NCBI GenBank assembly: GCA_016933575.1
Contig: JAFGAR010000081.1
Coordinates: forward strand, 96,001 to 160,000
Length of the DNA: 64,000 bases
Source: Candidatus Thorarchaeota archaeon
GTDB taxonomy: Archaea > Asgardarchaeota > Thorarchaeia > Thorarchaeales > Thorarchaeaceae
Direction: 5' to 3'
The translations under genes were made by a program, and so were the position numbers. The notes beneath the pieces were generated by a model. It had not been told where the DNA came from. It saw nothing but the letters and a program-made list of their open reading frames with translations, and did not search any database. Positions 58,476-64,000 of this stretch are shown here, piece after piece. Numbering within the stretch: the stretch's first letter is position 1; every line of letters starts with the position of its first letter.

Positions 58476-58536
58476 GTACTCCAGTGTATGATTACTCTTA
58501 AGAAGAACTGATGAGAAACACTTGTTGGAATTACTG

Positions 58537-59505
58537 ATGACCCTCGGTACCGACTCAAGTAAGAAACAAACAAAGGCAAAGAAGAATCGCTCAAAGGCGT
58601 ATATCCCCCATCTTGCTGAGTTTTTCTTCGAACCAACATTTGATTGGAGCTACGATGAGGCTAAGCATCTATTTGAGCTAACTGCAAAAAAACATGATTT
58701 TGTTCAATTGGATACTGTTGAGTTTAGAGAATGTATAGATGGAATGAGATGTCTTCCAGATTCTTCAGTGAATTTGATTATTGCTGACCCTCCCTTTGGA
58801 ATAGATTTCAATGGTAAAAGTAGTGTCTATAACCGTGATGATGAACTTGTCATTGCTGGATATGAAGAGGTTCAGGGTTCATACCGGGCGTTTTCCAAAG
58901 CTTGGATGAAAGAACTCCTTCGAATAATGAAGCAGGATGCTTCAGCTTACATATTCAGTGGGTGGACAAATCTTGATGCTATACTGGCTGGTGCAAACGA
59001 TGCTGGTCTTAAAGTACTAAATCATTTGATCTGGCACTATCCTTTTGGTGTCTACACAAAACGTAGGTTTGTCACAAGTCATTATCATATTCTCCTTCTT
59101 GTTAAGGACTTAAAGTCGTATTATTTCAATAAGATAGAGAATTACCCTGAAGATGTTTGGATAGTGAAGCGGAAGTATAGAACTGGACTTGAAAAGAATG
59201 GAACAAAATTGCCTCTTGAAGTTGTAGCACGTTGCGTTGACTTTTCTTCAAGACCTGGTGACATTGTACTTGACCCATTCTTGGGAAATGGTACAACTGC
59301 TGTAGCTGCTAAATCGTCTTTCAGACATTTCATAGGGTTTGAGATCAATGAGGAATTGAAGCCCTTACTGAAGCGTGAGATTAATGCAGTCATTCCTGGT
59401 CAATCCTACAGACCCTATAGAGAACGACTTCCGACCCTGAAGGATTTGTCACAGCTATACCCTAGGGCTTATCGAGAATATTTGAAAAGAGCGGGAGAGA
59501 AATAA
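58537..59505 (+). CDS. N6-adenine/N4-cytosine DNA methyltransferase, beta class
   Basis: LIIADPPF catalytic motif IV precedes VLDPFLGNGTT SAM-binding motif I. Confidence 0.92.
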   Translation: MTLGTDSSKKQTKAKKNRSKAYIPHLAEFFFEPTFDWSYDEAKHLFELTAKKHDFVQLDTVEFRECIDGMRCLPDSSVNLIIADPPFGIDFNGKSSVYNRDDELVIAGYEEVQGSYRAFSKAWMKELLRIMKQDASAYIFSGWTNLDAILAGANDAGLKVLNHLIWHYPFGVYTKRRFVTSHYHILLLVKDLKSYYFNKIENYPEDVWIVKRKYRTGLEKNGTKLPLEVVARCVDFSSRPGDIVLDPFLGNGTTAVAAKSSFRHFIGFEINEELKPLLKREINAVIPGQSYRPYRERLPTLKDLSQLYPRAYREYLKRAGEK

Positions 59506-59538: not shown

Positions 59539-60978
59539 ATGGACCCTGAAGATTTGTTTGTAGAACATGGTTCTTCGTTCGACAGACTTGCAGATGCTTC
59601 TAGTCCAAGTGATATTTTCACAAGGCAATTCGGTACTGAGTTCACCCAATGGGAATTCATGTTTTTACAAAGATTCCACGAGCGCCTATCTGGGAAAAAA
59701 TCCCTCTATCGTGGGTTTGTTCACCATACACGTGATACATCTCTAGTTCTTCTTACACCAAGTCCTTGGTTAATGGAGGGCGAATTTATCTTTTTCAAGG
59801 ATGACCAAAAACTACCTGCTGATGGCTCTTATATTGAGGTAATTGGGCGGCGAATTGCTGATGCTGGGGCATTACAAAGATCTAAGACATTGCTTCGAGC
59901 AATCTCAGTCGATTCCTATCAGATGCTTCCTATGGACTTCATGGAGCAAATCGCGCCACCTATGAGTCTTAAAGAACTATCATCACTTCTGTTTGAACGG
60001 GTTGGTATGGCCGAGGCAAGCAAACGGGTCTTTGCCAGACTCTTTGTTTCTAGTCCTCCTTACCAGAATGCTATTGGTGGTCTTACTACTGGTATTCAAG
60101 CAATTGCATCACAGACACAGATCAAACGATTTCTTTCGTTTATACGTCGTGTCCTCCCACCATCGATAGCACGAAGAACTGCAACTAATATGGATGTACG
60201 AGGAATTAAGGTCATGAATCCAAGAATTTTCAGAGTCGATATTGGTTCACTATCCCATTCAAGACTGGAAAATCTCTGTATAGAAAGACGCGACCCCTCT
60301 GGGTTTAGAGAGGTCTCTATAGGTACCCTTACTGAATCGGAAACTGCTATACTTCCAGATATTCCTCTTGCTCTTGCATCAGAGGATTTCTGGATTGAAA
60401 CTGGTAACCCAATGGAGCTCCGTTTACCCATTCTTAAATCTGCAATCACATATCAGCTACTTACTCCCTCGCTGTCACAACGTACTATTGATTCGACCAC
60501 AAAACATGTTCTTTCACGACTCGAGGACCTTCAGGAGAGTTTTGGCCTTGATGAAAGTGCTTTGGCTCGAGGGCACGTTCTTGATGCAGACACTCTTGGT
60601 AAACCGCTTAGCACATTGAAGATTGCTCGTTCTACAGCTAGAGCATCATGGAAGGATAAGGTCACAACCAAGGAGATGAAGTCCGCTTGGGACAAAATTC
60701 TAGAACCTGCACTCAAGGAATTTCTAGAACTCTCTGAGATACGGAAGGTATCGGAGGAAGACTGGGGTAAAGGTGCTCGTTTTGATAAGTTCAACACGAA
60801 AGTTCTGAAAGCTATCCGAGACCTTGATTCTGGAAAGAGAGGATCCCTTGGACCAACCTTACAGGAAATAGCCGAGGAAGCTGGAGTAGAGCGTCATGTG
60901 GCTGCAGAGACCCTGAGTCGAATGAAGGACAGTGGAGTTCTCTATGAACCGAGACCGGGTCACTACCGGCTTGTCTGA
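59539..60978 (+). CDS. Degenerate MCM-like protein (OB-like, inactive AAA+-like and C-terminal winged-helix regions)
   Basis: C-terminus LSRMKDSGVLYEPRPGHYRLV; lid helix LKIARSTARASWKDKVTTKEMKSA; no Walker A or B motif. Confidence 0.6.
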   Translation: MDPEDLFVEHGSSFDRLADASSPSDIFTRQFGTEFTQWEFMFLQRFHERLSGKKSLYRGFVHHTRDTSLVLLTPSPWLMEGEFIFFKDDQKLPADGSYIEVIGRRIADAGALQRSKTLLRAISVDSYQMLPMDFMEQIAPPMSLKELSSLLFERVGMAEASKRVFARLFVSSPPYQNAIGGLTTGIQAIASQTQIKRFLSFIRRVLPPSIARRTATNMDVRGIKVMNPRIFRVDIGSLSHSRLENLCIERRDPSGFREVSIGTLTESETAILPDIPLALASEDFWIETGNPMELRLPILKSAITYQLLTPSLSQRTIDSTTKHVLSRLEDLQESFGLDESALARGHVLDADTLGKPLSTLKIARSTARASWKDKVTTKEMKSAWDKILEPALKEFLELSEIRKVSEEDWGKGARFDKFNTKVLKAIRDLDSGKRGSLGPTLQEIAEEAGVERHVAAETLSRMKDSGVLYEPRPGHYRLV

Positions 60979-60984
60979 GATAAT

Positions 60985-61077
60985 CTATGGAAATGCCTTG
61001 AGGAATTTCTCATATTCATTTCCTTCTTCAATAATCTCGATGTCTTAAACACAAGGACCTGGTACATCATACCTTCG
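60985..61077 (-). pseudogene. Degenerate duplicate of the 3' end of the gelsolin gene
   Basis: Translates RRYDVPGPCV*DIEIIEEGNEYEKFLKAFP* versus intact RRYDAERVGVQDIEIIEEGDEPEEFLKAFP*. Confidence 0.85.
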
Positions 61078-61272
61078 TCAAATCACAGGAAAATAATGTA
61101 CAATAAACGAATTGCATCAAAAAAATTGCGGAAAGTACTAGAAAAGAATATAGTGCTAAAAACCCGGAACAGCTCGAATGGAATGTAATGCATAACACCA
61201 ATTCCTTCCAATTAGTTGGATTGTTTTGTTATTTGATTCATTCTTTTTACAAAGGCATGGGAACGAGAAAAT

Positions 61273-61830
61273 ATGTCAAAGAACGAAATTCCTGAATATA
61301 TCCAATCACTTCGGACCGATTTAGGATTTGATTTTGTTGACCTTTACCAACAAGGTCAGAGAGTCATTGCTACAGTTTCACCTGAACAGTATTCATATGT
61401 TTTAGAATTGACAAAAGCGCGAGTCGAACAAGACTATCAAGCAGGAAAATTAGACTTAATCACTGCGAGTACGATTTTTCTCACCGTTCTTCAATTGAGT
61501 AATGAAGTAGAGGATTTAGAATCTCAAATTATAACACTTTGTAACTTGGGAATAATGTATCAAAATTCACGTGCATATGATGTGGCGTTAACATTTGCAG
61601 CTGAAGCGATTAAAATTGCGCATAAACATAATTTACTTGAGATGAAACTCAAAGCTCTGCAGGTAGTTTCCCTAGTATATACTAATACCTCAGAAAGTCA
61701 GAAACATATCGACGTTTTGGAAGAGGTAGCAAAAATCTATGGAAAACTAGGACAACTGGACAAAAAGGCAGAAATCGAGGCGCAGATTAAGCAATTTAAG
61801 GAGTTTATGGCGATTCTAGGAAGGTCTTAG
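61273..61830 (+). CDS. TPR-like helical repeat protein
   Basis: TLCNLGIMY...YD.AL.F..EA..I repeat pattern. Confidence 0.7.
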   Translation: MSKNEIPEYIQSLRTDLGFDFVDLYQQGQRVIATVSPEQYSYVLELTKARVEQDYQAGKLDLITASTIFLTVLQLSNEVEDLESQIITLCNLGIMYQNSRAYDVALTFAAEAIKIAHKHNLLEMKLKALQVVSLVYTNTSESQKHIDVLEEVAKIYGKLGQLDKKAEIEAQIKQFKEFMAILGRS

Positions 61831-61874
61831 TGAAAGTTGATGTATATCATTGAAAATCAGGTAGCTATCGTCAT

Positions 61875-61906
61875 AAAAAGGAAATGGCGTGAGGGGATTC
61901 CCTCAC
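61875..61906 (-). terminator. Hairpin plus T-rich tract downstream of gelsolin
   Basis: Minus strand GTGAGGG-AATC-CCCTCAC followed by GCCATTTCCTTTTT. Confidence 0.6.
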
Positions 61907-61926
61907 TTAATTAATGTAATAGAATA

Positions 61927-62523
61927 TCAGGGAAATGCCTTAAGAAACTCTTCTGGTTCATCTCCTTCCTCAATAATTTCGATGTCTTGAACACCAACCC
62001 GTTCAGCATCATATCTACGAGCAAGAATGTTCCCATCGAACTTCTCCCTAGCCGAGGCTTCCTTTCCTCGCCATACAAAGATGTCATCCCATGTATCAAG
62101 GATGAAGACATCATCAGTCTTGAGAGATTTTCTATTGACAGGAACTTCAGCAAAGAAGGTCTCGTCACCTTCTCGGTGGACCTTCCAGAGCTTGTACTCG
62201 TGAGTCTCAAGGTGAACTTTTCGTAGAATTCCCTCTGTATCTTGATCAGTAAGCTGAAAATCATCGAACAGACTCTTGAATTCCTGTGGTTCATTCCCTC
62301 CTTCTATACGGTCAATATCTGCTTTTCCCTCGCGTTCTGTGTCACGCATGACGGCAGCAGCCGCAGTCAGGAATTTCTCATCAACAGTCGACTTAGGTCC
62401 AATCCAGAGGTAAATCTTCAGTCCAGCATCGACAAGATAACAGTCTCCTCGACCAAATTTTCCTGGATCTGGCATCCTAACAAGTCGGCCCTTTTGAATA
62501 TGATAAACGATTGGTTCCGGCAT
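61927..62523 (-). CDS. Two-domain gelsolin (Asgard 2DGel-type actin regulator)
   Basis: Two gelsolin repeats: FGRGDCYLVD...IYLWIG.KS..DEK...EGGNEPQEF and LKTDDVFILD...IFVWRG..AS..EK...EEGDEPEEF. Confidence 0.93.
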   Translation of the reverse strand: MPEPIVYHIQKGRLVRMPDPGKFGRGDCYLVDAGLKIYLWIGPKSTVDEKFLTAAAAVMRDTEREGKADIDRIEGGNEPQEFKSLFDDFQLTDQDTEGILRKVHLETHEYKLWKVHREGDETFFAEVPVNRKSLKTDDVFILDTWDDIFVWRGKEASAREKFDGNILARRYDAERVGVQDIEIIEEGDEPEEFLKAFP

Positions 62524-63358: not shown

Positions 63359-64000
63359 ATGCCCGAACTCCCTGAATTAGAAGTCATCAGTGCCCACCTA
63401 ACGAATTTGCTTGTTGGTGAAAGCATCACTAAGGTCTCTGTACACAATCCACTTGTCATTCATGGGCTCCCAATTGATGATTTCATTCAAGGGGCAATTA
63501 ACGAGAGGTTCGATAGTTTTCGGGCAGATGGCAAATTCCTGATAGCAAGTCTTGAGAACCATGATCTGGTAGTCAATCCTATGCTTACTGGTAGATTCAG
63601 AGTTATCCCTCGACACAAAAAGCCAACGAAGGTCGATATGTTCTCTATTCAAACCAGTGGTCACACTTTTTGGTATTCTGATACCAAAAAGATGGGGCGT
63701 GTCTACCTTGTTACTAGGGGCGACTATTCTAATGTGGCTGGTTTTGCTAATAGAGGTCCGTCACCTTTTGATACTATTTTGACCTCCAATTTTTTCCAAG
63801 AACGCCTCAAACACCATACTGGCCAAATCAAGAACGTACTACGGAATCAGCGTTTCGTGAAAGGCATCGGTAATGCCTATGCTGATGAAATCCTTCTCTA
63901 TGCAGGTATCTCACCTTTTAGAAAATGTTCATCACTAAGTCACGATGAAGTGGAACAACTCTATACAGCCATGAAGAAGGTTCTAATTAAAATCTATGAC
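63359..64000 (+). CDS. mutM: Fpg/Nei family DNA glycosylase, truncated by window edge
   Basis: Manual translation: MPELPELEV..., GKFL, MLTG, KGIGNAYADEIL (H2TH). Confidence 0.9.
   Translation, partial: MPELPELEVISAHLTNLLVGESITKVSVHNPLVIHGLPIDDFIQGAINERFDSFRADGKFLIASLENHDLVVNPMLTGRFRVIPRHKKPTKVDMFSIQTSGHTFWYSDTKKMGRVYLVTRGDYSNVAGFANRGPSPFDTILTSNFFQERLKHHTGQIKNVLRNQRFVKGIGNAYADEILLYAGISPFRKCSSLSHDEVEQLYTAMKKVLIKIYD

Follow-up and report, generated by a model that had tools for sequence, protein, structure and literature searches.

The window analysed here is a stretch of 64,000 nucleotides from a Candidatus Thorarchaeota archaeon (GenBank assembly GCA_016933575.1, contig JAFGAR010000081.1, positions 96,001 to 160,000 of the forward strand), and all coordinates below are positions within it. 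It carries a gene for a protein, here called pseudo-MCM, whose predicted architecture resembles that of the MCM helicase and which lacks the MCM ATPase motifs. An earlier note, made from the sequence alone, had assigned this 479-residue frame to a catalytically dead MCM paralogue, and the frame proved to be a genuine open reading frame (ORF) from ATG to stop. More than 120 clusters contain orthologues of the same length (identity 56-77%), and every named cluster among them is annotated as a Thorarchaeota 'hypothetical protein'. The host genome also encodes one canonical MCM of 691 amino acids (P0169), in which all motifs are intact. The domain layout of pseudo-MCM and the positions of the genes around it are given in Table 1.

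Table 1. Features of the pseudo-MCM gene and of its neighbours in the window
Feature	Position	Strand	Description and basis
Pseudo-MCM gene	59539..60978	+	ATG-to-stop ORF, 479 aa + stop codon
Residues 1-45, family-specific N-terminal segment	59539..59673	+	Conserved R-x-x-G-x-E-x-x-x-x-E motif; occupies the place of MCM helical subdomain A
Residues 46-135, predicted OB fold corresponding to MCM N-terminal subdomain C	59674..59943	+	Without zinc-finger subdomain B
Residues 136-305, predicted degenerate AAA+ alpha/beta core	59944..60453	+	~170 residues vs ~210 in MCM
Residues 183-207, Walker A position	60085..60159	+	Reads TGIQAIASQTQIKRFLSFIRRVLPP; without glycine-rich loop, without GK[ST]; hhalign and regular-expression scan
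Residues 272-285, arginine-finger (SRFD) position	60352..60393	+	LPDIPLALASEDFW; Arg replaced by E282; hhalign
Residues 306-400, AAA+ lid	60454..60738	+	Sensor-2 helix remnant G-K-P-L-S-T-L-K-I-A-R-S-T-A-R; hhalign, BLASTP
Residues 401-479, linker helix and MCM-type C-terminal winged helix	60739..60975	+	Ends GVLYEPRPGHYRLV; hhalign, PDB matches
Beta-class N4/N6 DNA methyltransferase	58522..59505	+	33 nt upstream of pseudo-MCM, co-oriented; Pfam N6_N4_Mtase 2.6e-35
NYN ribonuclease (1.5e-19) + OST-HTH/LOTUS protein, 444 aa	56009-57343	+	Conserved block upstream of the methyltransferase
TPR gene, 185 aa	61273-61830	+	Between pseudo-MCM and the convergent gelsolin gene (interval 60979-61926)
Two-repeat gelsolin-domain protein	61927-62523	-	Pfam Gelsolin 2.2e-30; conserved beside pseudo-MCM across the family
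Fpg/Nei-type DNA glycosylase, start	63359-64000, runs off the window	+	PELPEVE N-terminus; co-oriented with pseudo-MCM

Sequence comparison related the C-terminal part of pseudo-MCM to MCM by several routes. BLASTP aligned residues 308-477 with residues 512-687 of the genome's own MCM (24% identity, E 5e-6), and phmmer matched pseudo-MCM to an Asgard MCM in the PDB (8x7t, E 0.0024). When a profile of the pseudo-MCM family was run against PDB sequences, it retrieved SsoMCM (4fdg, E 6e-9), 8x7t (E 7e-9), 2m45 (E 2e-7), and MCM8 (E 3e-5), and the matches to the C-terminal winged helix (WH) comprised the MCM WH entries 2m45 and 2ma3 as well as the WH domains of MCM8 and RPA32. In most Asgard genomes, the same profile matched canonical MCMs at their C-termini, with E values of 1e-8 to 1e-11. 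We then aligned a family alignment of 43 sequences (A2) globally with an alignment of 16 Asgard MCMs by hhalign, and the two were colinear over the whole protein (query 1-479 vs MCM 162-689, probability 98.2%, E 4.2e-13). Split into parts, the lid alone (E 3.7e-5) and the WH alone (E 1.2e-9) were both significant, and the hhalign and PDB matches bear out the archaeal MCM-type WH that had been recognized earlier at the C-terminus. At the level of sequence, homology to MCM is proven for the last ~170 residues, and the remainder is compatible with it.

All of the segments quoted in the earlier note are present, in MCM order, and colinear in the global alignment: RVGMAEASKRVFARLF falls on the G-H-x-x-IK-x-x-IALLLF helix of MCM, GIQAIASQTQIKRFLSF on ILMIGDPGTGKSQILKFV in the MCM Walker A region, PLSTLKIARSTARA on the sensor-2 helix, and the tail of the protein on the MCM winged helix. 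The proposed match of LPADGSYIEVIG to the OB motif PGDxVxVTG is plausible but lacks statistical support; in this part of the protein, the family-invariant residues P93, G96, and G103 align with the MCM-invariant P224, G225, and G232. Residues 1-45 found no MCM counterpart in hhalign, and structural matches to MCM start at residues 43-46, opposite residue 108 of SsoMCM. Domain libraries recovered little of this relationship. Neither Pfam PF00493 (MCM) nor PF17207 (MCM_OB) matched pseudo-MCM or the family members checked, and the Pfam matches of pseudo-MCM itself were weak and confined to the C-terminal WH (AbiEi_4, 9e-4; MCM_WH_arc, 0.15; MCM_C, 0.21). Among members of the family, MCM_C, MCM_WH_arc, and WHD_MCM8 were matched, and MCM_lid matched two of them. 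The NCBIfam MCM model failed, with 12 bits against a cut-off of 940 and a match confined to the C-terminus.

For the remaining two thirds we turned to predicted structures. AlphaFold2 (AF2) models were built without templates from family-only alignments, which held 43 sequences for the full-length protein, and the full-length model reached a pLDDT of 85.0 and a pTM of 0.78. In a Foldseek search of the PDB with this model, all of the top 50 matches were MCM subunits, with E values from 3.5e-12 and 430-560 aligned columns. Residues 25-335 were also modelled alone (pLDDT 88.4), without lid helices 2-3 and the WH, which excludes the region that has sequence similarity to MCM. With this truncated model, MCM chains still accounted for 48 of the top 50 Foldseek matches (E from 3e-8) and filled the nine highest rows in an exhaustive VIA structure search. 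MCM N-terminal domains and the OB folds of SSB and PriB matched residues 44-134 of the protein (residues 20-110 of the model), and the succession of OB fold and AAA+ domain was matched as a unit over 240-300 aligned residues, whereas other AAA+ proteins matched the core only and with lower Z. A resemblance to MCM limited to the WH, with a centre that is not of the AAA+/MCM fold, had been named in the earlier note as the outcome that would speak against its reading; the truncated model instead ranked MCM first. In these predictions, the central region adopts an AAA+/MCM fold, the N-terminal region corresponds to the OB subdomain of MCM, and the OB fold leads directly into the AAA+ core and lid, arranged as in MCM.

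The ATPase motifs of MCM are missing from this framework. In the hhalign alignment, GDPGTGKS (Walker A) stands opposite AIASQT-QI of pseudo-MCM, and the DEFD of Walker B and the AAANP stretch of sensor-1 fall in gaps, in a region where the sequence alignment is unreliable residue by residue. SRFD is aligned with ASE-D, E282 taking the place of the arginine, and LPFTILSRFDLIW is paired with IPLALASE-D-FWIE. The AILPDIPL segment to which the arginine-finger site had previously been assigned therefore lies near the right place but is not itself the site, the aligned position being E282, a few residues later. A motif scan of 216 pseudo-MCM family members and 121 canonical MCMs agreed with the placement by hhalign and upheld the claim that Walker A, Walker B, and the arginine finger are absent: Walker A at the P-loop position and Walker B were each found in 0 of the 216 family members, while Walker A, Walker B, and SRFD were all present in 121 of the 121 MCMs. 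SRFD strings do occur in some orthologues at residues ~413-416, in the linker and not at the arginine-finger site, and one thaumarchaeal cluster has a GxxxxGKS elsewhere in the protein; both are coincidental. The zinc-binding subdomain B is missing as well, since pseudo-MCM has a single Cys and two CxxC pairs occur in 1 of the 216 members as against 118 of the 121 MCMs. Positions conserved within the family (VSSP...GGL, E258, D274/P276, G354/P356, and R368) are sites of conserved MCM motifs at which the residues differ; D274 and P276 are near-invariant across the family alignment, and R368 in the lid is invariant. The core is ~40 residues shorter than that of MCM, and from the model and hhalign we infer that the helix-2-insert and pre-sensor-1 hairpins may have been replaced by short connections. 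Because all members share the dead motifs, the inactivation predates the spread of the family.

The degenerate protein is well maintained. The ratio of nonsynonymous to synonymous substitution rates (dN/dS) was 0.06-0.16 across 25 orthologue pairs with dS <1.5, and the regional medians were 0.094 for the N-terminal segment and OB fold, 0.086 for the core, 0.067 for the lid, and 0.114 for the WH. Strong purifying selection thus acts on the whole protein, degenerate ATPase domain included, and values of ~0.09 in all four regions rule out a decaying pseudogene. Pseudo-MCM evolves faster than MCM, the orthologues of which share 77-91% identity, above the range given above for pseudo-MCM.

The distribution of the family was surveyed in 400 Asgard genomes from 33 families with a profile restricted to residues 25-335, which cannot cross-match true MCMs. 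A single copy was present in 85 of the 85 genomes of the host's own Thorarchaeota family and likewise in 3 of the 3 genomes of a second Asgard family; in the remaining families the profile had no matches apart from three isolated Thorarchaeota-like copies in other Asgard bins, which are probably contamination. The host bin contains a second copy on a 1.6-kb contig (C123:100-1536, locus L004) with 52% identity to the first. As nearly all relatives are single-copy and the estimated contamination of the bin is 6.9%, this copy is probably a contaminant as well, likely from another Thorarchaeota genus in the sample. The family, found in 2 of the 33 Asgard families sampled and sporadically in TACK, is not Asgard-wide. 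When 1.8 billion representatives were searched exhaustively with phmmer, 48 proteins were returned, of which ~35 were relatives of 440-500 amino acids with 22-32% identity and none was a true MCM. A search with a non-Thorarchaeota alignment (A4), limited by a word-sharing filter, returned 3 proteins. The named distant members belong to Odinarchaeota, Nitrososphaerota, and Methanomethylicia. Full-length members lie in Nitrosopumilus chromosomes (hhalign E 6e-79 over 466 columns), one of which also encodes one canonical MCM. In the ESM Atlas, the nearest neighbours of pseudo-MCM, ahead of true MCMs, were three clusters of archaeal hypothetical proteins with 464, 139, and 81 members.

Among known proteins, canonical archaeal MCMs (SsoMCM, 4fdg/6mii; Asgard MCM, 8x7t; the P. 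furiosus AAA+ domain, 4r7z) have the same order of OB fold, AAA+ core, lid, linker, and WH. They are the best structural matches to pseudo-MCM, over ~300 residues, and resemble it in sequence in the lid and WH, while pseudo-MCM is ~210 residues shorter. The eukaryotic proteins MCM-BP and MCMDC2 are MCM-like, lack working ATPase motifs, and act by binding rather than by unwinding. The comparison with them in the earlier note holds only as an analogy of logic. No link to MCM-BP could be shown: Pfam MCM_bind (PF09739) matched neither pseudo-MCM at E values up to 1 nor 43 family members at E values up to 0.01. No MCM-BP or MCMDC2 chain was found among the listed structural matches either, and an MCM-BP cluster appeared only as a weak language-model neighbour whose score of 0.83 is below the reliability line of the tool itself. 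Identity with MCM-BP was accordingly set aside, and the restriction of the family to two sampled Asgard families speaks against direct descent of the eukaryotic inactive MCMs from it.

Among archaea, an inactive homologue of MCM has been described before, namely, MCM2 of Methanopyrus kandleri (MkaMCM2, PDB 3F8T) (PMC2933578). It is comparable in size to pseudo-MCM, is likewise an ATPase-dead MCM paralogue, and occurs beside an active MCM, as pseudo-MCM does. Degenerate ATPase motifs and internal deletions within an MCM fold mark this type, and in sequence and model pseudo-MCM has them too. 3F8T was not among the matches of the family profiles to PDB sequences, and a common descent of the two inactive lineages would be conjectural. 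The 3F8T chain has ~107 residues before the OB fold that the Thorarchaeota protein does not have, and it appears from the aligned ranges to end with the lid in the structural alignment, leaving no counterpart of the WH. WhiP, a Cdt1-related origin factor of Sulfolobales and Desulfurococcales, has tandem winged helices and is restricted to Crenarchaeota (PMC3607249). WhiP takes part in archaeal replication initiation by means of winged helices and is not an ATPase, so that it may be a functional analogue, and its description sets it apart from pseudo-MCM, which would have an OB fold, an AAA+ shell, a lid, and one WH instead of tandem ones. On that description (tandem WH, Crenarchaeota-specific; PMC3607249), a WhiP/Cdt1-like identity was set aside.

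The gene neighbourhood of pseudo-MCM is conserved within the Thorarchaeota. The order runs NYN/LOTUS, iron-sulfur (Fe-S) protein, methyltransferase, pseudo-MCM, gelsolin-domain protein and one ORF in some cases, and Fpg/Nei; in some genera (L015 and L030), Fpg lies directly downstream of pseudo-MCM and is co-oriented with it. The methyltransferase matched the PADLOC models for Type II and orphan MTases. In all 29 of the Thorarchaeota flanking loci examined, and in two further genomes, its gene precedes pseudo-MCM in the same orientation, usually at a distance of 30-50 nt; the gap is ~1.2 kb in L011 and L020 and ~1.3 kb in L058, one of the two further genomes. In the loci examined outside the Thorarchaeota family, no homologue has this methyltransferase beside it. 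The methyltransferase is a syntenic neighbour within Thorarchaeota and at most a putative partner of pseudo-MCM. The gelsolin-domain protein is an Asgard eukaryotic-signature protein. The TPR gene was seen only in L011, L014, and L020, and in most related genomes the gelsolin gene abuts pseudo-MCM; the TPR gene looks like a recent insertion.

Outside Thorarchaeota the neighbourhoods are unrelated and consist of metabolic genes, small unknown ORFs, or toxin-antitoxin clusters. On a Methanomethylicia contig (L049:1504-4543), a family member lies between a Cren7 gene, with ~800 bp of non-coding sequence upstream, and a gene for a divergent Cdc6/Orc1, in convergent orientation and with TFB behind it, a setting that could be origin-proximal or an integrated element. 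In the Nitrosopumilus genome G400 (L064:6222-10976; L060:1735-1811), the homologue belongs to a series of unknown ORFs and lies 3 kb beyond a tRNA-Val gene. A Type ISP restriction-modification enzyme of 1584 aa is encoded upstream of it and an HNH protein of 472 aa downstream; the ORFs checked at this locus included no integrase. The loci of the distant homologues, including that of Nitrosopumilus, look like variable regions or islands.

Pseudo-MCM is very probably an MCM-derived pseudo-enzyme which, judged from sequence and models, would neither bind nor hydrolyze ATP in the MCM manner and would not be a motor. With similarly high confidence, the parts kept from MCM appear to be the N-terminal OB subdomain, an empty shell of the AAA+ core, the lid, and the MCM-type WH, and the parts in all likelihood lost are the helical subdomain A, the zinc finger, Walker A, Walker B, sensor-1, and the arginine finger, together with, to go by the short connections of the model, the hairpins that translocate DNA. 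Loss of the ATPase motifs means that the protein could not be an ATP-driven motor, and for a single-copy core gene under strong purifying selection this implies that its job should lie in the retained surfaces. Because these surfaces are an OB fold, a basic shell, and an MCM-type WH, we prefer a non-catalytic factor that docks on MCM partners or DNA, and this explanation as a whole, an MCM-derived pseudo-ATPase acting as a non-catalytic binding factor, is probably correct.

The function of such a factor can be narrowed further only with declining confidence. A link to replication or repair, the role that we consider likeliest, is a tentative proposal, toward which the predicted isoelectric points of the core (9.6) and WH (9.1) and the Thorarchaeota synteny with a DNA methyltransferase and an Fpg/Nei glycosylase provide leads of a DNA-related kind. 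In Sulfolobus, the MCM WH contacts ORB-bound Orc1-1 (PMC12141716). In a version of the binding-factor role that is rather unlikely in this specific form, the WH of pseudo-MCM would dock onto the same partner, i.e., origin-bound Orc1/Cdc6, the OB fold, basic core, and WH would contact DNA, and loading of the true helicase would be either limited or assisted. By analogy one could go further and imagine a licensing regulator whose WH occupies or bridges origin-bound Orc1/Cdc6, or which caps or chaperones MCM, in the functional role of an archaeal MCM-BP or Cdt1; the Thorarchaeota protein might, with the methyltransferase, exert methylation-coupled control of initiation like Dam/SeqA, and it might be a domesticated mobile-element module. 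This elaboration is speculative and improbable.

Several observations weigh against an MCM-derived binding factor in replication or repair. The parts of the protein containing the OB fold (1-135) and the core (136-305), taken alone, gave no significant hhalign match to MCM (E 0.2-0.46), so that their identity as MCM domains depends on predicted structures. No consistent replication genes lie beside the distant homologues in the loci examined. In TACK the family is rare, occurring in 8 of 401 sampled genomes of the phylum of Nitrosopumilus and in 6 of 201 of its family (~2-3%), and its neighbours there are toxin-antitoxin, restriction, and HNH genes in variable regions, which is more in keeping with an accessory or mobile-element origin than with a universal role in replication. 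Given this sporadic, island-like occurrence, the Thorarchaeota gene may have been domesticated from a mobile-element MCM. Finally, the WH is a generic module, and the non-MCM families RPA32, IclR, MarR, and LexA match the family profile weakly.

The weakness of the N-terminal sequence signal could mean that only the lid-WH module was borrowed from MCM and that the N-terminal two thirds are an unrelated OB fold joined to a generic AAA+-like domain, or a modelling artefact. Residues 1-305 alone reached an hhalign E of 0.46 against MCM, a second family profile (A3) had no matches among PDB sequences, and the TM-scores of the structural matches are low (0.3-0.4), owing to domain orientation. Against this, the model of residues 25-335 ranks MCM chains first in two independent searches and is matched in its OB-then-AAA+ order as a unit where other AAA+ proteins match the core only; even the best non-significant local alignments fall at the expected colinear positions of MCM, namely, the first OB strand and, for the core, the Walker A region (179-216 vs MCM 329-365). 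We regard a borrowed module as highly improbable. Another alternative is a winged-helix transcription regulator in which the MCM-like body is only an oligomerization or sensing scaffold unrelated to replication. The WH weakly matches AbiEi_4 (9e-4), HTH_Crp_2, GntR, TrmB, and LexA, besides IclR and MarR, the gene stands alone amid unrelated neighbours in distant lineages, and Orc1-2 of Sulfolobus is an example of an initiator paralogue turned global regulator (PMC9738581). The best sequence matches of the WH are nevertheless those of MCM (4fdg, 8x7t, and 2m45, with the E values given above) as compared with at least 5e-4 for regulators, archaeal regulators usually combine an N-terminal winged helix-turn-helix with a small ligand domain, and the OB fold and dead core are under equally strong selection, which makes a regulator unlikely.

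The constant presence of the methyltransferase suggests yet another role, in which pseudo-MCM would be its partner, as an epigenetic reader, a specificity or targeting subunit, or an effector of a restriction-like or mobile-element-derived module fixed in Thorarchaeota. Their adjacency is kept despite differing outer flanks (NYN or Fe-S upstream; gelsolin, TPR, or Fpg downstream), TACK homologues lie in variable regions with restriction-modification, toxin-antitoxin, and HNH genes, and a DUF1156 methylase is encoded near a homologue on one Methanomethylicia contig. Yet the homologues outside the Thorarchaeota family do not adjoin this methyltransferase, ~1.2-1.3 kb has been inserted between the two genes in three loci (L011, L020, and L058), and the block is inherited vertically with housekeeping-type neighbours. 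Pfam revealed no nuclease or other effector domain in pseudo-MCM, and neither PHROGs nor PADLOC had a family for six members tested. An obligate two-gene system as the principal explanation is ruled out by the homologues that lack the methyltransferase and by the intergenic insertions, and a functional partnership is, in our view, quite improbable.

A literature search found no description of the pseudo-MCM family in the papers searched, and a 2025 survey of the Asgard replisome treats MCM as single-copy and does not describe the family (PMC12680538). ATPase-dead MCM paralogues are a known kind, of which the Thorarchaeota family is an undescribed variant. Eukaryotes built regulators and heteromeric machines from inactive paralogues of replication ATPases, e.g., MCM-BP, MCMDC2, the non-catalytic subunits of ORC and RFC, and Cdc45 from RecJ. 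Pseudo-MCM, a dead MCM that had escaped annotation and is strictly conserved and under strong constraint as a core gene throughout one Asgard family, provides a concrete, testable archaeal case of this inactive-paralogue route and would add an unrecognized component to the replication or repair toolkit of Thorarchaeota. By itself the finding has no bearing on eukaryogenesis, because the other sampled Asgard lineages lack the family and no link to the eukaryotic inactive MCMs is shown. Since full-length relatives occur in some genomes of Nitrosopumilus, a lineage with cultured members, biochemical and perhaps cell-biological tests are conceivable.

During the survey of canonical Asgard MCMs, we also noted that many of their genes lie in open frames of 1000-2300 amino acids instead of ~690 (e.g., G036:C91, G040:C47, and G043:C122), which suggests one or more inteins in those lineages.

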